Below, piece by piece: positions 5,403-50,446 of a stretch of 64,000 nt of DNA. The notes beneath the pieces are model-generated. The model had not been told where the DNA came from. It saw only the letters and a list, made by a program, of their open reading frames with translations, and did not search any database. The translations under genes were made by a program, and so were the position numbers. The stretch comes from Clostridiales bacterium (GTDB taxonomy: Bacteria; Bacillota; Desulfotomaculia; Desulfotomaculales; VENG01), in contig JADQBQ010000018.1 in assembly GCA_016278505.1 (NCBI GenBank), positions 4,002-68,001 of the forward strand, written 5' to 3'. Positions within the stretch are counted from its first letter, which is position 1. Every line of letters starts with the position of its first letter.

Positions 5403-5516
5403 CGCACAATATACCTCCTCTCCTTAATGAATGAATATTCACTTATTCTAGTTTATATCATTGTTTTCCTGCCCCCAAAAAAATAAATGCCGGCCGGCAT
5501 TTATTTTTTACGTCTT

Positions 5517-23246: not shown

Positions 23247-23826
23247 AAAAGAAGGATAGACTGTTAATGGAGTGCCACATTGCCATATCCTTCTTATGTG
23301 CATGATAATTATTCTTACCACTATTGAAATAGCGCCCTTCGATGTCGGATGGACTTAAATTCTCATTGAGGCTCATAGCCTCTGGATCATAGGATGCACT
23401 AGTAAGTCTTTTTGCTAGACCCTCCTGTGTAAAATCTACCGGAATGAAATGTAATTGTCCTGGCTTCGCCCATCCTAATTCAGTTATTCGGCGACGTTTA
23501 AAGTCTTGTGTGGCGGGATGATCAATCCCAAAAACCTTAAGCCTTTCTACGATTTCCGGTCGTCTAAATACAAATGTATCCATCCCTGCCCCTAATATTA
23601 CATACTGCTTAACTCCATGAACTACAGCCTTCTCAAGGAGATCTTCCAAATATCGTGCACCACTAATAGCATTATTTGCTTGCATTAAAGCCTCTTTAGG
23701 TAAAATTTTGTTCAATTAATTTCCGGCTATCTTCAGGAATCAAGCTGTATGCTAAGAAATCATCAAAGATCTTTGGTTCAGCATATCTGTTCGAAGGCCT
23801 GCAGTTTACAATACCATTAAAATAAG
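23179..23826 (-). pseudogene. LCM/TcmP-like class I SAM-dependent O-methyltransferase, frameshifted and C-terminally degraded
   Basis: The ORF contains GVKQYVILGAGMDTF motif I. An upstream segment (..RYAEPKIFDDFLAYSLIPEDSRKLIEQNFT) reads in another frame and ends in a stop 1 nt out of phase. The C-terminal third loses family resemblance and overlaps the antiporter remnant. Confidence 0.5.
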
Positions 23827-24274
23827 GGGAATCTGAGGAGGATCGATCGGGGGTTAGGGATTTCTAAAGCTTTAATAATTTGCGCTATACTAATTTTTGT
23901 TCTATTTCCGTAACACATTCTGTTTTGATTTTTTCAACCAAGAATTGCAGGCCATCTACAACATGTGGCAACTATCTTGACGTTCCGTTCCAGGCACCAG
24001 CGGACGGTGTTGGCGGATATGGTATGCAGAAGGTGCTCCTTTCGCCGCTCAAATCTGTTAAGGAAACGATTCATTTTGCAAAAATACCGATTTTGCCCCA
24101 ATAGATTTATCAATATCAGAAGCATATATTTTGTTTCTTTATAAACATAAATATTTTTGTCTCGGGAATTGTGCCTAAAGTTAAAACAATTTCCTTCTTA
24201 CCATTATCGTCTAAATCAAATTCCACTGTATGCCCGTCTTATCTGTAGGCTCAAATTACCCCCGCCTTAAGCCT

Positions 24275-24592
24275 TCAGGAATCACGTAAACGCTTGGCTA
24301 TATCGCTGGCACTGTACAAAACGTTTGTAATGATTACCCGATCTTCTCTGGTATGGAAAAATACAGAAAAGTTATCAACAAGCATTAGCCTGAGTCCCAG
24401 CGCACCTTCTTCTTCTGTCTCCATTAACTTCACACGTTCCGGGAACGTATCAAGAGTTTCGATTGCGTCAGCTATTCTGGTATACTGTCCCATGGCCGCT
24501 TCCGGTGCCTGTAGCTGCTCTGCGATATAATAATAAATCTCTTCCATATCGGAAAGTGCCTTCTCCGTGATCTGAACCTTATACTGCTTCAT
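24275..24592 (-). CDS. Type II toxin, RelE/ParE family
   Basis: 105 aa. Typical ParE-like organisation (..FPERVKLMETEE...RLMLVDNFSVFFHTREDRVIITNVLY). 4-nt overlap with the upstream antitoxin gene. Confidence 0.8.
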   Translation of the reverse strand: MKQYKVQITEKALSDMEEIYYYIAEQLQAPEAAMGQYTRIADAIETLDTFPERVKLMETEEEGALGLRLMLVDNFSVFFHTREDRVIITNVLYSASDIAKRLRDS

Positions 24593-24894
24593 GCATGTGT
24601 CTTCCGAAATCTCCGAAAGGCAGCAGATGCATCCTGCACATTACCTTTTTCAATATCGTTGTATCCTTCCTTTAACTTGGCATGAATTTCGTCCGTTGTC
24701 ATCAAATCGGCGTTTACGGAAACCGGTGCTTTCGGCAGTGTTACAGCAAAAGGTATTCCGCCGGTCATTGAAATCTGCTTCAGATAAATATCTATTGCTG
24801 TGGACATAGGCATGCCCAGTTGCGAAAGGACTTCTTCAGCCCTTCTTTTTACGTCAGGATTAACTCTTAAATTTAAAGTCGTAGTTTTTTCCAT
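24589..24894 (-). CDS. Type II antitoxin, RelB/DinJ family
   Basis: MEKTTTLNLRVNPDVKRRAEEVLSQLGMPMSTAIDIYLKQI is a ribbon-helix-helix DinJ-type N-terminus. ATG 24894 lies 9 nt after AGGGAG. Confidence 0.8.
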   Translation of the reverse strand: MEKTTTLNLRVNPDVKRRAEEVLSQLGMPMSTAIDIYLKQISMTGGIPFAVTLPKAPVSVNADLMTTDEIHAKLKEGYNDIEKGNVQDASAAFRRFRKTHA

Positions 24895-25157
24895 GTTAAT
24901 CATCTCCCTTTTAATAACATTGTAAGGCTTTCGTCGTTACTATACAATAACAATCTTCCTTTGTCTCACAACAATTCTCTTAAGTACTTAATATGTGAAG
25001 CTTTGTAATTTACCCCCTGTCATTTGAAGCTACTTTAATTGGTCTTTGTTGTTAACCTTAGCCTGGGCTGCGACTATCATAAAAGACTAATCACTATTTT
25101 CTACTGTTATGAAACACTACTTGTAACCGATGCTGCGGCGACTAAATCCTATCAAAC

Positions 25158-25345
25158 CTACCCGTAAAATGCTCCCAGGTGGGATACATCGTGGACACCG
25201 GGAAACTTATCCAAATCTGCGACAGGCTTGATAGTTTCCGCCGTGACAGTTTTACGGGTCAGGTGGCGTAGCTCTGCCAAGGTTCCGGATTCTACAATTT
25301 CCCCCTGTCGGATGATGCCAACACGATCACAAAAGGCTAAGGCAA
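25158..25345 (-). pseudogene. Fragment of an ABC transporter ATPase (C-terminal part only)
   Basis: ..CDRVGIIRQGEIVESGTLAELRHLTRKTV.. with no Walker A/B or signature motif, and no credible start. Confidence 0.6.
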
Positions 25346-25347
25346 TT

Positions 25348-25845
25348 TTATTCCAAAATATACACAGTACCCTGCCCTCCATCAACAACAACCTTATCGC
25401 CCGTCTTAAGTCTTAAAGTGGCGTTACCGCATCCTACAACAGCAGGAATCCCTAGCTCTCTGGCAACTATAGCAGCATGGGACAAGGGTGCACCTACGTC
25501 AGTTATTATTGCTGCAACTCTAGGGAAAAGAGGGGTCCAACCTACATTAGTAGTTGTTGCAACTAGAATTTCACCTCCATAAGTTCAGCAGTTCTTCCTT
25601 AGTGTTTGTTTTCTTAATGGCTGCCTTTGTCCTTCTGCACCAATCAGGCGTATCCTGAACAAATTGCGACAGGCTTTTTGAAACTTCCCGATTCTTTTTC
25701 AAGTAATATCTGATTCCCGGAAACATTGCCTTTATTACATCCATTCTTGAAAATGGATAGGCTGGAATTGTTAACCCTTCTGGTATCTGGCCGAATACTT
25801 CCCCGAGAATTTTTAAACCTAATTTTGGGTGTTTCTCCGTTTTTA
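25348..25845 (-). pseudogene. C-terminal remnant of a PEP-utilising (PpsA/rifampicin-phosphotransferase-like) enzyme, frameshifted
   Basis: Mobile His-domain sequence GGEILVATTTNVGWTPLFPRVAAIITDVGAPLSHAAIVARELGIPAVVGCG...GTVYILE-stop. The preceding segment (..QIPEGLTIPAYPFSRMDVIKAMFPGIRYYLKKN..) is in a different frame. There is no N-terminal ATP-grasp part. Confidence 0.6.
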
Positions 25846-25849
25846 ATTA

Positions 25850-26200
25850 TTATTTCCGCAAAATCTTATCCATCGCTTTTCCCTTTGCTAACTCATCGAT
25901 CAGCTTATCCAAATAGCGAATTTCCTGCATAGTTGGTTCTTCAATGTCTTCCACTCGGACACCGCAGACCACACCTTTGATCAAAGCCCGTGAAGGATTC
26001 AGTTGGGGAGCTTCCGCAAAGAAGGTTTCAAAGTCTGTCTGTTTTTCCAGTTGCGCTTCTAACTCTTCCTGGCTATATCCTGTCAACCAACGGATGATTT
26101 CATCGACTTCTGTTTTCGTACGTCCTTTTTTCACCGCCTTCGCAACATAATGGGGATAGACACTTGCAACACTCATTGTATAGATACGATGTTTGGTCAT
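25850..26200 (-). CDS. DUF2200 domain protein
   Basis: 116 aa. [42 protein letters not shown] matches my recollection of the DUF2200 family. Confidence 0.6.
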
Positions 26201-26674
26201 GATACATCCTCGCTTATATTTATTAAATTACCGATATTTAGTATTACCATTGAGCTTGCATCAGTTCATAATCTTACGTGCTGTGTTGACATTTCTTATC
26301 GTAACTTGTTTATATATCTTTGATCCAACGATCTTTTGCTTTCCACTTTTGGTTACATTTTTCTTGTCAACCGACCATAGGATTGCGCCGGGTACATATT
26401 TTATCGTGTCAATATTTGCTTTAATAACCAAATTCTCAAGTACAGATTCATCATGCTAATATTTCACCATTCACCATTATACCCTGACATTTTCGGCAAC
26501 AAATTACCTTGCAAATCTATTAATGCACATTATAACAATTTTTTTGGCACTGCCCCTTTTTAAGAAGCCCAGACTTACTAATGTGGTAGAATAATTGGAA
26601 GAAATTTAATATTACATCATACAGTAACTCATGCTTATTAACACACTCGCCCTAATTTAATAAATAACAAAGCA

Positions 26675-26723
26675 AAACCAGGGTACTGCCTCTTAATCTC
26701 ATTAAGTGACAGTACCCTGGTTT
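26675..26723 (-). terminator. ppdK intrinsic terminator
   Basis: CCAGGGTACTG ... CAGTACCCTGG 11-bp perfect stem followed (minus strand) by TTTTGCTTTGTT. Confidence 0.7.
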
Positions 26724-26749
26724 AAATTTTCATTGAAGCCTTACTTCGA

Positions 26750-29398
26750 TTAGTCTTTGTTGTTAACGGCGGCCTGGGCAGCGGATAACCGGGCAATGGG
26801 AACCCTAAAGGGTGAACAGCTTACGTAATCCAGTCCTATTAAGTGGCAAAACTCAATTGAACTGGGTTCACCACCATGTTCTCCACATATACCGATAAGC
26901 ATATCCGCATCAAATTGCCGGCTTTCTTGCACGGTCATTTTCATGAGCCGGCCTACCCCATCGCGATCAAGTACCACAAAGGGGTTTTCCTTTAATATCT
27001 TTCTGTCTACATATTCGTGCAGAAATTTTCCTTCAGCGTCATCCCTGCTAAATCCGAATGTAGTTTGAGTAAGGTCGTTGGTGCCGAAAGAGAAAAAGTC
27101 AGCTTCCGGAGCAATTTCTCCGGCCATCAGAGCTGCCCTTGGCACCTCTATCATGGTACCCACTGTATATGCAAAAACAGTTTCTGTTTCTTTGGCGACT
27201 TGTTTAGCTATATCATCTACCATTCCCCGCAAGGTTTTTAGCTCATTAACTTCACCCACCAGGGGAATCTCCACTTCAGGAATCACTTTAACGCCCTCTT
27301 TGATCAGCTTGGCAGTTGCCTGAAATACCGCCCTGGCCTGCATGGCATATATATCAGGGAAAGTTATACCCAGGCGGCAACCACGATGCCCCAGCATGGG
27401 GTTGAACTCGGTAAGCTGTCTGACCTGCTTTAGTAACTCCTGTTTTTCTTTAAGTTTTGCCGAATTACTACCGGTCAGGCGCAATTCAGTTATTTCTACC
27501 AAAAGGTCTTCAGCATTAGGCAAAAATTCGTGTAGAGGGGGATCGAGAAGCCTAATGGTCACAGGCAGGCCTTCCATGGCCTTTAAAATACCGTAAAAAT
27601 CATCTTCCTGCATGGGCAAGAGTTTATTAAGGGCCTCCTGACGCTTTTCCTCGCTGCCCGCTAAAATCATCCTTTGTACAATGGGCAAGCGGTCTTGAGC
27701 CATAAACATATGCTCTGTACGGCAAAGTCCAATCCCTTCCGCTCCAAATTCCCGGGCCTTTGCTGCATCTGCCGGAGTATCGGCGTTAGCCCTGACCCCT
27801 AATTTTCTAACGTCATCCGCCCAATCCAATAGCTGCTGAAATTCAGGGCTCAGCTCGGGATCCAACATTGGTACGTCCCCGATAATAACCTGTCCTGCAG
27901 AGCCGTCAATAGATATCAGGTCACCTTTCTTAATCACCCTATCTCCCACCATGAAAGTGTCCGCCTCGTAATCTATACGCAAAGCTTCACAACCGCATAC
28001 ACACGGCTTACCCATTCCCCGGGCAACCACTGCGGCGTGACTGGTCATTCCTCCCCGTGAGGTGAGCACACCCTGGGCGGCAATAATCCCATGAATATCA
28101 TCAGGAGTTGTTTCAGTACGAACCAGTATTACCTTTTCCCCTTGCTGCGTTATTTTCTCGGCCTCATCAGCATCAAATACCACCTTCCCGCCTGCAGATC
28201 CAGGAGAAGCAGGAAGTCCTTTAGCAATAACTTCCAAGGCCGCATCCGGATCTATGCGCCTGTGCAAAAGGTGATCCAGATGAGACGGCTCTACCCTGTT
28301 GATGGCTTCTTGCCTGGTAATTAACTCTGCATTCACCATATCAACAGCAATTTTTAAAGCTGCTTGCGCCGTCCGCTTTCCTGTTCTGGTCTGAAGTATG
28401 TATAGTTTGCCGCGTTCGATGGTAAATTCAATATCCTGCATATTGCGATAATGGTTTTCCAATAAGTTACACGTACTCACAAACTGTCCGTAAACAGCCG
28501 GCAAATCATCCTTCATGGTAGCGATTGGCTGCGGTGTCCTAATGCCGGCAACTACGTCTTCTCCCTGTGCATTGATGAGGTACTCACCATAAAGTATATT
28601 TTCTCCTGTTGACGGGTTGCGGGTAAATGCCACTCCTGTGCCACAGTCATCACCCAAATTACCAAATACCATGGTCTGAACGTTTACTGCCGTACCCAGT
28701 TCATCCGGGATTTTATTAACTTTGCGGTAAACCACGGCCCGGTCTGTATTCCAAGAATTAAATACTGCAAAAATAGCATTAAACAACTGTTCCATGGGCT
28801 CTTCAGGAAATGGCTTCCCGGTTTCTTTTTTAATTAACTGCTTATAGTCTTTGATTACCTCTTTCCACTGTTCAGCTGTCAATTGATTATCAAATTCAAC
28901 GCCACACTGGTGTTTTTTATCTTCCAGGTACCGCTCAAACTTATGATGCTCAATTCCCAGCACCACATCACCGAACATGTTAAGAAAACGCCGGTAACAA
29001 TCCATGGCAAAACGCTCATCACCTGATGCCGCGGCCAATCCCTGTACAGTGTCATCGTTTAATCCCAAATTTAAAACTGTATCCATCATGCCGGGCATTG
29101 AAATGGGCGCTCCGGAACGAACACTCACCAAGAGAGGGTTACTGGGATCGCCAAATTTTTTCCCTGTTTTCTTCTCAAGATCCTGCATCTTTTCCCTTAC
29201 CTGCTCCTTCATGCCGGCAGGAAACTGCCTTTCATGGACATAAAACTCGTTACACGCCTCGGTGGAAATAATCATACCCGGGGGTACAGTTAAACCAATA
29301 TTAGTCATTTCCGCCAAGTTTGCACCCTTTCCGCCCAGAAGGTCCTTCATATCTGCACGACCTTCGCCAAACAGGTATACATATTTCTTACTTGCCAT
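26750..29398 (-). CDS. ppdK: Pyruvate, phosphate dikinase
   Basis: MASKKYVYLFGEGRADMKDLLGGKGANLAEM N-terminus. Catalytic His region GGMTSHAAVVARGMG. ATG 29398 after GGGGGGAAAGGC. The ORF-track start at 29470 is an upstream extension. Confidence 0.95.
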   Translation of the reverse strand: MASKKYVYLFGEGRADMKDLLGGKGANLAEMTNIGLTVPPGMIISTEACNEFYVHERQFPAGMKEQVREKMQDLEKKTGKKFGDPSNPLLVSVRSGAPISMPGMMDTVLNLGLNDDTVQGLAAASGDERFAMDCYRRFLNMFGDVVLGIEHHKFERYLEDKKHQCGVEFDNQLTAEQWKEVIKDYKQLIKKETGKPFPEEPMEQLFNAIFAVFNSWNTDRAVVYRKVNKIPDELGTAVNVQTMVFGNLGDDCGTGVAFTRNPSTGENILYGEYLINAQGEDVVAGIRTPQPIATMKDDLPAVYGQFVSTCNLLENHYRNMQDIEFTIERGKLYILQTRTGKRTAQAALKIAVDMVNAELITRQEAINRVEPSHLDHLLHRRIDPDAALEVIAKGLPASPGSAGGKVVFDADEAEKITQQGEKVILVRTETTPDDIHGIIAAQGVLTSRGGMTSHAAVVARGMGKPCVCGCEALRIDYEADTFMVGDRVIKKGDLISIDGSAGQVIIGDVPMLDPELSPEFQQLLDWADDVRKLGVRANADTPADAAKAREFGAEGIGLCRTEHMFMAQDRLPIVQRMILAGSEEKRQEALNKLLPMQEDDFYGILKAMEGLPVTIRLLDPPLHEFLPNAEDLLVEITELRLTGSNSAKLKEKQELLKQVRQLTEFNPMLGHRGCRLGITFPDIYAMQARAVFQATAKLIKEGVKVIPEVEIPLVGEVNELKTLRGMVDDIAKQVAKETETVFAYTVGTMIEVPRAALMAGEIAPEADFFSFGTNDLTQTTFGFSRDDAEGKFLHEYVDRKILKENPFVVLDRDGVGRLMKMTVQESRQFDADMLIGICGEHGGEPSSIEFCHLIGLDYVSCSPFRVPIARLSAAQAAVNNKD

Positions 29399-34077: not shown

Positions 34078-34313
34078 CTCCCGCCCCAGGCACAAAGCCA
34101 GGGACGGGAGGTACTTTCCCGCGGTTCCACCCTGTTTGGCAGTAATATTACCGCCCCCTTAAGCAGTGCAAGTTTTACTCATCGCTTCATGAGGTGATTC
34201 GAAACGATTTTCCTCTTGCGGTTCAGGAACCCCTTTCAGCCGGTTTCACTCACCGGTTTCCACCATCCCGGCTCTCTGAAGAATTACATCCGCCTACTCT
34301 TTCCATCATCACC
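34078..34313 (-). promoter_or_regulatory. T-box leader of glyQS with putative GGA (Gly) specifier and terminator/antiterminator
   Basis: Minus strand: Stem I base GGTGAT/ATCACC with a GA (K-turn) motif, an AGAGAG bulge and a GGTGGAAA distal loop. Specifier-loop 3' side is AAGA-GGA-A (GGA = plus 34211-34213). T-box sequence AAACAGGGTGGAACCGCGGGAAAG. Terminator CCCGTCCCTGG...CCTGGGGCGGG. Confidence 0.8.
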
Positions 34314-34398
34314 AAAGTATTATTTGCGATTAATTTACCAAATTTACGTTGTAAAGTCAAATACCCTTTTACCTTAATCATCAGCTATCGTTGGTAAT

Positions 34399-36414: not shown

Positions 36415-36475
36415 AACCTGTCTTTTGCGCCCACTCATTCATTTCATCTCGCAGGCCAGGCTAAGGCTCAGTCTC
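36415..36475 (+). repeat. Copy A of the AACCTGTCT-terminus repeat family (61 nt, A/C subtype)
   Basis: AACCTGTCTTTTGCGCCCACTCATTCATTTCATCTCGCAGGCCAGGCTAAGGCTCAGTCTC. Matches 49912-49950 plus 50050-50071 at 58 of 61 positions by hand alignment. Confidence 0.8.
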
Positions 36476-47150: not shown

Positions 47151-47195
47151 CATAAAGGAATCTCTCAATGCATAATTGAAAAATATAGAAAGAAG

Positions 47196-47243
47196 GATGA
47201 TAAACCTGTCTTTTGCGCATAGCGAATGAATTGAATCGAGCTG
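47196..47243 (+). repeat. Copy B of the repeat family (48 nt, B/E subtype), left arm of the inverted pair bracketing selD-yedF-kinase
   Basis: GATGATAAACCTGTCTTTTGCGCATAGCGAATGAATTGAATCGAGCTG. 45 of 48 identical to the reverse complement of 50349-50396. Confidence 0.8.
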
Positions 47244-47265
47244 AAAATAATAAAGGATGATAAAC

Positions 47266-48309
47266 TTGAATAAACAAGAACACAGATTAACCCAAATGAC
47301 CAAAAGTTCAGGGTGAGCTGCCAAATTGGGGCCTGAGGCCCTGTCGCAGGTACTGCGGCAGCTACCGGTGCTTGATCACCCTAACTTATTGGTGGGATTG
47401 GAAACCTCAGATGACGCTGCAGTTTACAAACTGAACGGGAGCACTGCCATTATTAATACCGTTGATTTTTTTACCCCTATTGTGGACGACCCCTATCTAT
47501 TTGGCCAAATTGCAGCAACCAACGCGCTGAGCGATATCTATGCCATGGGCGGGCAACCGCTTCTTGCTTTGAACATTGCATGTTTTCCCAGCTGCCTGCC
47601 CAAGGAAATGCTGGCCCAAATATTACGCGGGGGCGCCGATAAAGTTATGGAGGCTGAGGCCATTATAGCCGGAGGTCATACCATAGAAGATGACGAACCT
47701 AAATACGGTTTAGCCGTTACCGGACTGGTGCACCCGGATAAAGTAACATCTAATTCCAATGCCCGAACAGACAACCTCTTAGTATTAACCAAACCCCTGG
47801 GCACCGGAATCATAAATACTGCCATCAAAGGCGGCCTGGCCAGTGATGAAGTGATAAGGCAGGCATCGCATAGCATGTGTGAATTAAATAAAGAGGCTGC
47901 CCGGATAATGAATAATACAGGTGCCCGGGCTTGTACTGATATAACCGGGTTTGGATTGATGGGACATGCTGCTGAAATGGCTGAGGCAAGTAATGTAAGT
48001 CTGGAAATCTGGTCGGAGGAAGTACCCCTATTACCCGGAACATTGGACATGGCCTCGATGGGGATGATCCCCGCAGGGGCTTACAATAACCAAACATATC
48101 TACAGGGAAAGACTAAATTTTCAGGACAAATAAAAGCTGAATTACAGTTAGCCTTTTTTGACCCACAAACCTCGGGAGGTCTGCTCATTTCCATACCGGA
48201 AGGCAAGGCTGACATCTTAATGCAGGGTATGAATGATGCCGGAATTGCCCACGCTGCAGTAATAGGCAAAGTAAAACAGCGAAAAAGTCATTTAATAGAG
48301 ATAGTGTAG
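47266..48309 (+). CDS. selD: Selenide, water dikinase (selenophosphate synthetase) with active-site selenocysteine (UGA 47314-47316)
   Basis: (M)NKQEHRLTQMTKSSG-U-AAKLGPEAL aligns with the E. coli SelD N-terminus [20 protein letters not shown] (Sec at the Cys17 position, Lys at +3). TTG 47266 lies 8 nt after AAAGGA (ATG 47257 is also in frame). The ORF track begins only at 47326, after the UGA. Confidence 0.85.
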
Positions 48310-48991: not shown

Positions 48992-49870
48992 ATGAAAACA
49001 GCATTTATTATCAACCCCGCTGCGGGGAGGGGAAAAACAAAAAAACTATGGCCCGTTTTAAGAAATCTTTTGATACCGGAAACAGTGTTCGAAGAACATT
49101 ATACAACCGGGCATGGGCATGCTTCCAAGTTAGCCGGTGTTTTGGAAAATAAAGGGGTTAAACGGATAGTGATTGTAGGAGGCGACGGCACACTTCATGA
49201 AGTAATAAACGGCCTTAAGAAAAAAGAAGCCGTTATGGGGGTAATTCCCACCGGCACCGGCAATGATTTTTGCCGCTCAATAGGCATACCTGCTGATCCC
49301 CGCAGTGCAATAAGGATTTTATCGGAAGGCCGCATACGAAAACTGGACCTTGGCTGTGTAAACAACAGATTTTTTATCAATGTTGCCGGAGTGGGCTTTG
49401 ATGCCCAGGTTGCACAAGAAATAAACAAGGGAATAAAATGGCTTACCGGTTCCCCCGCTTATTTAGTAGCAGTTGTAAAACTAATAATGACCTATCGGAA
49501 TATACCGCTGCAGATCATTCTAGATAACAATACTAAAATCCACTTAAATAGTTTTCTACTGGCTGTAGGAAACGCTCAATATTACGGTGGAGGTATGCGT
49601 ATTGTTCCCTCTGCTGTCCCGGATGATGGTTATTTTCACATCTGTGCCGCGGGTGATGTTAGAAAAAGGGATGTTTTAATTACCCTACCTAAGATTTTCA
49701 GCGGCAAACATATGGATCACCCCCTGGTTCGGGGGTATACAGCTAAAGAAATTGAAATTTCATCTGACTGCAGGGCAGTGGTGCATGCTGACGGGGAAAT
49801 AATAGGGCACCTGCCGGCAAAGTTTTCAATACTTCCCAGAGAGCTAAAATTATTGGTCCCTGCCAGGTAG
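48992..49870 (+). CDS. Diacylglycerol kinase catalytic-domain lipid kinase (YegS/BmrU family)
   Basis: NPAAGRGK, GGDGTLHEVINGL and PTGTGNDF motifs. Confidence 0.85.
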   Translation: MKTAFIINPAAGRGKTKKLWPVLRNLLIPETVFEEHYTTGHGHASKLAGVLENKGVKRIVIVGGDGTLHEVINGLKKKEAVMGVIPTGTGNDFCRSIGIPADPRSAIRILSEGRIRKLDLGCVNNRFFINVAGVGFDAQVAQEINKGIKWLTGSPAYLVAVVKLIMTYRNIPLQIILDNNTKIHLNSFLLAVGNAQYYGGGMRIVPSAVPDDGYFHICAAGDVRKRDVLITLPKIFSGKHMDHPLVRGYTAKEIEISSDCRAVVHADGEIIGHLPAKFSILPRELKLLVPAR

Positions 49871-49911: not shown

Positions 49912-50389
49912 AACCTGTCTCTTGCGCCCGCTCATTCATTTCATCTCGCACTTTAAGCATATTACCTTGCCATATATATGGCAAGCGTTAAGGAATAAAG
50001 TATAAAAAAGCGCGCGCTAAGGGAACTGATTTAAGCACGCTTTTTTTCAGGCCAGGCTAAAGCTCAGTCTCACGCTCCAGCGGGATTCCCAAATTAGCAA
50101 GCCTCCTTCTTTAGACCAGCTGTTTTCGCAATGGCATAGATAAAAGTTAGTATTAAGAAAACAGTTATAATGCCATTGCCGTCCGCCGTCCTGGCTCAGG
50201 GGGCGGCCTCGCACGTCCTGTGCTCGGTCCCGCTTATTACCCAACTTTGGTCTAATTCTAGACTTTGTTTTGCAATGGCTAAAGTAAAGTTCGGCTTTAA
50301 GAAATGTGTCAGGTTGCCATTGCCGTCCGACTTCGCTAAGCCTGGCAGCTGCTCGATTCAATTCATTCGCTCTGCGCAAAAGACAGGTT
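49912..50389. mobile_element. 478-bp ORF-less element bounded by 16-nt terminal inverted repeats (MITE-like) containing two tandem hairpin units
   Basis: AACCTGTCTCTTGCGC (49912-49927) versus GCGCAAAAGACAGGTT (50374-50389), 15/16 complementary. A second-tier inverted match lies at 50050-50074 / 50324-50349. Related copies lie at 36415 and 47196. Confidence 0.5.
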
Positions 50390-50414
50390 TATGATCAATT
50401 TTCTTTGACATAAG

Positions 50415-50446
50415 CAAAAAAACCCGCCCGTAGGCGGGGGTTTTTT
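50415..50446. terminator. Intrinsic terminator downstream of the 50452..50931 gene
   Basis: AAAAAAACCCGCC-CGTA-GGCGGGGGTTTTTT. Confidence 0.75.

Follow-up and report, generated by a model that had tools for sequence, protein, structure and literature searches.

MITEs derived from DDE insertion sequences include the Correia elements of Neisseria, RUP of Streptococcus pneumoniae and bcr1 of Bacillus cereus. REP/BIME sequences are repeated imperfect palindromes of 20-40 nt, which are usually clustered. The inside end of IS50 reads CTGTCTCTTGATCAGATCT. The IS4 family, with its IS50 subgroup, is characterised by a DDE transposase carrying a YREK motif. End signatures have been tabulated for this family, the one of the IS50 subgroup being CW------Y---CA-A--W- (PMC2266710, Table 1). 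Target duplications measure 8-13 bp in the IS4 family, 8-9 bp in the IS50 subgroup and 10-13 bp in the IS4 subgroup (PMC2266710). The IS50 subgroup is mostly proteobacterial (PMC2266710); the host of the DNA described here is an uncultured member of the Bacillota, whose lipid kinase has Candidatus Syntrophonatronum as its closest named relative (55% identity).

The stretch of DNA analysed here, 64 kb in length and referred to as the window, holds one two-ended element of 478 bp (49912-50389) and two solo fragments (36415-36475 and 47203-47241). Together they make up the sole interspersed repeat family of the window, tRNAs aside. The family is probably a lineage-specific, non-autonomous transposon derivative of the MITE-like kind, whose ends are similar to IS50-subgroup ends within the IS4 family. 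The features of the element, the two fragments and the contigs that stop within them are collected in Table 1.

Table 1. Features of the 478-bp element, related fragments and contigs stopping inside them (positions in the window)
Feature	Position	Strand	Remark
Left terminal inverted repeat, AACCTGTCTCTTGCGC	49912..49927	+	Probable functional tip is the C of CTG, 49915 (duplication at copy B and signature test)
Left subterminal pyrimidine-rich block, CCGCTCATTCATTTCATCTCGCA	49928..49950	+	A/C subtype; 95% identical to 36431-36453
99-nt insert	49951..50049	+	Missing in copy A; contains palindrome and hairpin; no second copy in the window
Second-tier inverted-repeat arm, left, GGCCAGGCTAAAGCTCAGTCTCACG	50050..50074	+	Also found in copy A (36454-36475)
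Core unit 1, ~144 nt	50050..50193	+	Ends in hairpin GCAATGGCAT...ATGCCATTGC (50128-50179), then CGTCCG
Core unit 2, duplicate of unit 1	50205..50349	+	Hairpin GCAATGGC...GCCATTGC (50272-50323), then CGTCCG
Second-tier inverted-repeat arm, right	50324..50349	-	Inverted match to the left arm
Right subterminal block, TGCTCGATTCAATTCATTCGCTCT	50350..50373	+	B/E subtype; same absolute orientation as the left block
Right terminal inverted repeat, minus-strand AACCTGTCTTTTGCGC	50374..50389	-	16-mer matches and complementarity
Copy A, solo left-end module	36415..36475	+	Has terminal repeat, block and second tier but lacks the 99-nt insert
Copy B, solo right-end-type fragment	47203..47241	+	Terminal repeat and block only; directly upstream of the selD start
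13-nt direct repeat bracketing copy B, AAGGATGATAAAC	47193-47205 and 47253-47265	+	Exact; single copy in L126 and L120
L114 (Logan, same strain)	Starts 47212, ends 49943		Stops inside ends B and C
L127 and L128 (Logan, two different runs)	Both end at 50363		Stop inside end E
L131 (Logan, same strain)	Ends at 36442		Stops inside end A
L113 (JGI contig)	Stops at 50224		Inside the core

Four ends bearing AACCTGTCTYTTGCGC are present in the 64-kb window, against 0.46 expected by chance. When the 16-mer terminus was searched with up to 3 mismatches, it matched at 36415 (end A), 47203 (end B) and 49912 (end C) on the plus strand and at 50374 on the minus strand (end E, starting at 50389); shuffled windows gave a mean of 0.46 matches, and four were reached in 0 of 100 shuffles. 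The termini of the two-ended element, AACCTGTCTCTTGCGC (49912-49927) and GCGCAAAAGACAGGTT (50374-50389), are complementary at 15 of 16 positions, as a first-pass annotation made from the sequence alone had stated. That annotation had also divided the ends into two subtypes with two copies each, and this division was confirmed: ends A and C are 95% identical over 40 nt, and ends B and E 96% identical over 46 nt. Copy A (61 nt) sits between convergent flavoprotein and MgtE genes. Its sequence is identical in the same-strain contig L129, and exact-match look-ups with its neighbour proteins retrieved only same-strain contigs. Copy B, 39-46 nt in size, has a single recognisable end.

The surroundings of copy B were informative on where the element begins. 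The 13-nt direct repeat that brackets this copy includes the ribosome-binding site and ATG of selD, and its first copy adjoins CTGTCT. Because the repeat is the native selD leader, as judged from the relatives, and abuts CTGTCT, the trinucleotide AAC at copy B is target DNA and the tip is CTG. The outer AAC/GTT is probably flanking target DNA in general and not part of the inverted repeat. With the tip placed at CTG, ends B and E agree with the signature of the IS50 subgroup at 6 of 7 positions, end A at 5 and end C at 4, where about 2.5 of 7 are expected by chance; with the tip placed at AAC, all ends score only 2-3 of 7. The likeness to IS50/Tn5 ends that had been noticed at first reading finds partial support in these scores. 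AAC precedes all four tips. The Tn5 target consensus is GNTYWRANC, and AAC fits its ANC end. The trinucleotide may be a sign of target preference and not belong to an inverted repeat. Outside the tips of B and E (47196-47202 and 50390-50396) the DNA is also alike, with GATGATAAAC and GATCATAAAC before CTG; this may be due to target preference or chance, and the relatives suggest that both flanks are native.

The 13 nt duplicated at copy B are within the range of the IS4 subgroup and outside the 8-9 bp of the IS50 subgroup, while it is the IS50 subgroup that the end signature fits. For the two-ended element no target duplication was found in any of 225 boundary combinations around 49912-50389, the longest flanking direct repeat being 3 nt. 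Given this result, the two-ended element is probably not the product of one clean insertion: either it inserted with a small deletion of the flank, or ends C and E stem from different events and were joined by recombination.

Syntenic contigs of relatives were retrieved by exact-protein look-ups. Contigs L125 and L126 (NCBI GCA_009711705.1) are 93.5-96.5% identical to the window at the DNA level over 20 kb. The 478-bp element is missing between the lipid kinase gene and the downstream gene in L115, L117 and L125/L126. In L125/L126 the two genes are separated by a short spacer with a terminator, and the same short spacer is found in L117; L115, with a kinase 97% identical in amino acid sequence, has a different spacer. 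The orthologous intergenic DNA of the relatives is too diverged to fix the exact empty site of the element. When the flanks of the element were joined and compared with L115, they met between CT and TAT, with about 8 nt of the L115 terminator missing. Copy B is missing upstream of selD in L126 and in the more distant L120, both of which have a single ribosome-binding site and start region at this position. As both the 478-bp element and copy B are missing in the relatives, the two loci are lineage-specific gains. The first-pass annotation had described a repeated, ORF-less element with terminal inverted repeats that looked inserted, and the empty orthologous site in L115, L117 and L125/L126 agrees with this description; the static intergenic region in relatives that it had named as the contrary outcome was not found.

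The comparison with the relatives also bears on a reading in which ends B (47203) and E (50389) are the two ends of a 3.2-kb mobile cassette carrying selD, a TusA-like gene and the lipid kinase gene, comparable to the MIC231 cassettes of Bacillus cereus. These ends do form a 46-nt inverted pair, 96% complementary and 3109 nt apart, and the lipid kinase is missing in the more distant L120. However, L125/L126 have the same three genes with the same neighbours and neither of the ends, and copy B has its own local 13-nt duplication. A composite, MIC-like cassette is hardly credible and was rejected on the intact synteny of L125/L126 without the ends.

Within the 478-bp element, the 99-nt segment that the left arm carries relative to copy A (49951-50049) was found as first described, as was the 20-nt perfect palindrome in it (49966-49985), which is unique in the window. 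The insert further contains a hairpin at 50004-50046, with an A run and a T run on its flanks. This hairpin had been put forward as terminator-like; the structure and its A and T runs are there, but at -12.6 kcal/mol (z = -1.15) it is not unusually stable compared with shuffled sequence, and it was not flagged in a terminator scan. The 8-nt direct repeat TTTAAGCA, thought at first to bound the insert, is not a clean boundary: its copies are at 49952-49959 and 50030-50037, and the second ends 12 nt short of the right edge of the insert.

The second tier of inverted repeats (50050-50074 against 50324-50349) matches at about 18 of 24 positions, close to the 19 of 24 of the initial count. Its left arm is present in copy A with 1 mismatch in 22, at a position where the pattern is degenerate (R). 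If the insert is removed, the two arms of the element can be aligned as an imperfect inverted repeat of about 60 nt. Between the arms, core units 1 and 2 are 70% identical over their best stretch of 67 nt, and the hairpin of unit 1 has a folding energy of -17 kcal/mol (z = -2.66). By sequence comparison, the 250-nt core arose long ago by tandem duplication of a hairpin-bearing unit of ~144 nt. An ancestor with a single unit and free of the insert would have measured about 235 bp, a size typical among MITEs. The stems of the core hairpins have been kept by identical sequence and not by compensatory change, and therefore give no information on RNA structure.

A core of duplicated hairpin units is also compatible with a mosaic of short intergenic repeat modules, BOX or BIME/REP-like, spread by recombination or by an unrelated recombinase instead of a DDE transposase. 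The modules occur singly (copy A of 61 nt, copy B of 39-46 nt), three of the four ends are situated between convergent genes, and the two-ended copy has no target duplication, all of which is in line with such a mosaic. We nevertheless regard it as unlikely, since the modules are no REP-like palindromes and, folded as DNA, are not more stable than shuffled sequence (z = +0.46 to +1.17), the core hairpins are found nowhere else in the window, the ends fit the IS50-type signature, and copy B is surrounded by an exact 13-nt duplication of the type a transposase would leave. Similarly unlikely is the corollary that the modules act as transcript-end or mRNA-stability signals and that the 478-bp unit is a chance juxtaposition of them.

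The subterminal block (~23 nt) keeps one direction at both ends of the element, whereas its neighbouring sequences on both sides are inverted. In all four pairings of a left-type block (A, C) with a right-type block (B, E), the alignment score was 9-12 in direct and 2-3 in inverted orientation, which upholds the earlier observation of a block that is "flipped" between the ends. It is conceivable, though we attach very little weight to it, that the two end subtypes are "flip" and "flop" isomers of one end module, the block being inverted by strand switching or through a hairpin intermediate. The block would then be, an equally doubtful proposition, the spacer between a terminal arm (TAACCTG...TGCG) and a second-tier arm (CGCA...CAGGCTAA). 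Short complementarity (about 8 bp plus 4 bp) is present on either side of the block. A stable end-module hairpin with a flipping loop is unsupported: the 8-bp complementarity flanks the block, but the stability of the end modules, given above, does not exceed that of shuffled sequence. A duller alternative is that a parent element simply had unlike left and right ends, and the four ends (n=4) do not separate the two. If flip and flop isomers did exist, they would imply an unusual end-processing or replication step in this transposon family, or a small invertible switch. This direct orientation of the subterminal block is the one feature of the element that is out of the ordinary, and is best seen as a curiosity.

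The element has no coding potential. Two ORFs were found inside it, one of 110 aa on the minus strand and one of 74 aa on the plus strand; the 110-aa ORF had no protein homologue, and neither had a significant Pfam match. The description of the element as ORF-less at first reading needs correcting to this extent, since these two ORFs do exist. No transposase is encoded in the element.

The element belongs to no known RNA family. Rfam gave nothing at the gathering score, and at E <= 10 only chance-level matches, nearly all of them over the adjacent bidirectional terminator at 50423-50438. The folding energy of the element is below that of shuffled sequence on both strands (z = -3.39 on the plus and -5.71 on the minus strand), as would be the case for a structured non-coding RNA gene or family in which the inverted repeats are RNA helices. 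However, any DNA inverted repeat yields such z-scores. The solo fragments, moreover, keep only the ends, the stems of the core hairpins are identical without compensatory change, and no Rfam match rose above chance level, for which reasons an RNA gene appears very improbable at this locus.

Further copies were searched for in several collections. In the scanned part of the genome collection, the 16-mer matched in at least 112 stretches; among the matches listed, which are put down to chance, none aligned with the element over more than about 32 nt and all E-values were 7e-4 or weaker. A cluster of these 16-mer matches in an Oligoflexus MAG was rejected, as these matches lie within a different, unrelated repeated element, at least 40 nt from the borders of the repeat that is shared. 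In the JGI metagenome collection, a 30-nt degenerate end pattern gave 0 matches, though the same sequence exists in a JGI contig; a pattern combining tip and second tier gave 2 matches in the metagenome scan, both by chance. Two patterns gave 0 matches in viral contigs, and sensitive BLASTN found no match in plasmids. Gene calls on other copies were sought with the 110-aa ORF as bait, with 0 matches. A literature search on the terminal strings returned only unrelated papers, and one on the accession numbers of the relatives returned nothing. As plasmids, viral contigs, JGI metagenomes and the scanned genomes yielded no relatives, the copy number and the boundaries of the family rest on one 64-kb window. 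In these searches no transposase or full-length autonomous parent was found, and no ORF flanked by termini of the element was found in the window.

The behaviour of short-read assemblies hints at further copies in the same genome, which were inferred from it and not counted. Contigs of the same strain (Logan) break off within all four ends, at a depth of 9-32 nt. When the variants at these stops were checked by eye, they were not shared with the window's other copy of the same subtype; for this reason, the branches in the assembly probably involve copies elsewhere in the genome. Contigs reaching beyond the window, found through the genes at its ends, held no new copies, and the contig ends there correspond to a palindromic terminator. 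The perfect palindromic terminator AAAATAAATGCCGGCCGGCATTTATTTT at 5486-5509 coincides with the end of a Logan contig. Since this terminator sits at a contig end, not all assembly breaks in the genome are due to the repeat family.

That assembly breaks suggest more near-identical copies speaks against an in-situ remnant of one full-length IS, which would have lost its transposase gene by internal deletion and be no part of a mobilisable non-autonomous family, while copies A and B derive from other full-length copies. Such a remnant would explain why only one two-ended copy is known and why copies A and B are clearly truncated, and a single IS would naturally have two end subtypes, one on the left and one on the right. 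On the other hand, the 250-nt core has no likeness to any transposase remnant and consists of a duplicated hairpin unit, as is typical inside MITEs. We think it quite improbable that the 478-bp element arose in this way.

For the favoured interpretation of a MITE-like derivative, the following course of events can be proposed. A DDE transposase encoded elsewhere in the genome would recognise the CTGTCTYTTGCGC termini, and copies devoid of a transposase gene would have been moved by cut-and-paste into intergenic DNA; this mobility and the affiliation to IS4/IS50 are deduced from the ends and from the duplication at copy B. The copy at 49912-50389 would have been remodelled later, by tandem duplication of its ~144-nt core and by insertion of the 99-nt hairpin-rich segment into the left arm. 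With its flanks now unmatched, this copy might have arisen by recombination between two copies, or it might have inserted and then lost a little flanking DNA. For copies A and B, decay to one-ended remnants is proposed.

Both gained loci lie next to genes on which they may have an effect. The kinase gene of L115 has a hairpin terminator of its own downstream, of which the window keeps only the left half. The first hairpin plus T run downstream of the kinase gene in the window is the one inside the 99-nt insert, and this hairpin could replace the lipid-kinase terminator carried by the relatives. The full copy occupies the site of the relatives' terminator and brings its own hairpin plus T run. 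Copy B has duplicated the ribosome-binding site and ATG of selD, so that one fragment doubles the start signals of a selenoprotein-pathway gene. The upstream duplicated ATG opens a frame of 10 codons (47198-47230, MINLSFAHSE) that stops before the true selD start. The selD gene (47258-48309) contains an in-frame TGA (selenocysteine) codon at 47314-47316. The mechanically called selD ORF start at 47326 is an artefact, since the real start is upstream (ATG at 47258 or TTG at 47266); the NCBI gene call for selD in a relative is 349 aa.

Some other variable features were observed in the same region and elsewhere in the window. In L120 (11585-11731) the lipid-kinase gene, located at 48992-49870 in the window, is missing, and the TusA-like gene is directly followed by a 166-aa gene. 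In view of this missing gene, the spacer at the kinase appears to be a hotspot for insertions and deletions at the level of both genes and repeats. In L115 (about 1033-1195) the gene that follows the kinase gene has a different insertion of ~160 nt in its 3' end, as a result of which the product is 170 aa long instead of 159 aa. This insertion includes a long hairpin (GTCATTCTGAATGAAACGAAG...CTTCGCTGCACTCAGAATGAC) and is absent from the window and from L117/L126. At 23700-26750 the window has a 3-kb stretch without long ORFs, with a 116-aa ORF and short ORFs that are maybe gene fragments. Two adjacent ORFs in it, of 104 and 105 aa, look like a putative toxin-antitoxin pair, and the stretch may be a small variable islet. 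Finally, a T-box leader with a score of 97.6 bits, which exceeds the gathering score, is located at 34097-34318 on the minus strand, upstream of the genes for the two glycyl-tRNA synthetase subunits.

The repeat described here adds one more family of small non-autonomous elements, from a poorly sampled lineage of uncultured Bacillota. In practical terms, each of its copies interrupts short-read assemblies. As small bacterial repeats go it is of an ordinary kind, if with a somewhat untidy internal history, and it opens no long-standing question.

Compared with known systems, the element shares with BOX and BIME sequences the occurrence of modules alone or combined and the repeated internal units. 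It differs from them in the termini of its modules, which are transposon-like, and in the target-type duplication around one of these modules. In contrast to REP/BIME sequences it has no REP-type palindromes; its end modules fold like shuffled sequence, and its palindrome and core hairpins are unique in the window. With IS50/Tn5 it has in common the tip CTGTCT(C/T)TTG and, for ends B and E, six of the seven positions of the IS50-subgroup signature. Unlike in that subgroup, where duplications are 8-9 bp, there are 13 nt at copy B and none at the full copy, and no transposase was found for this element. The two-ended copy also departs from MITEs in having no target duplication and in that no cognate IS was found in the window or in the collections scanned, and it is unusually composite, with a duplicated core, a nested insert and subterminal blocks that are direct rather than inverted; the copies in 64 kb are one two-ended and two partial. 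The likeness to MITEs comprises a length below 600 bp (478 bp), terminal inverted repeats, the absence of a transposase, an intergenic position, internal hairpins and presence or absence among close relatives.
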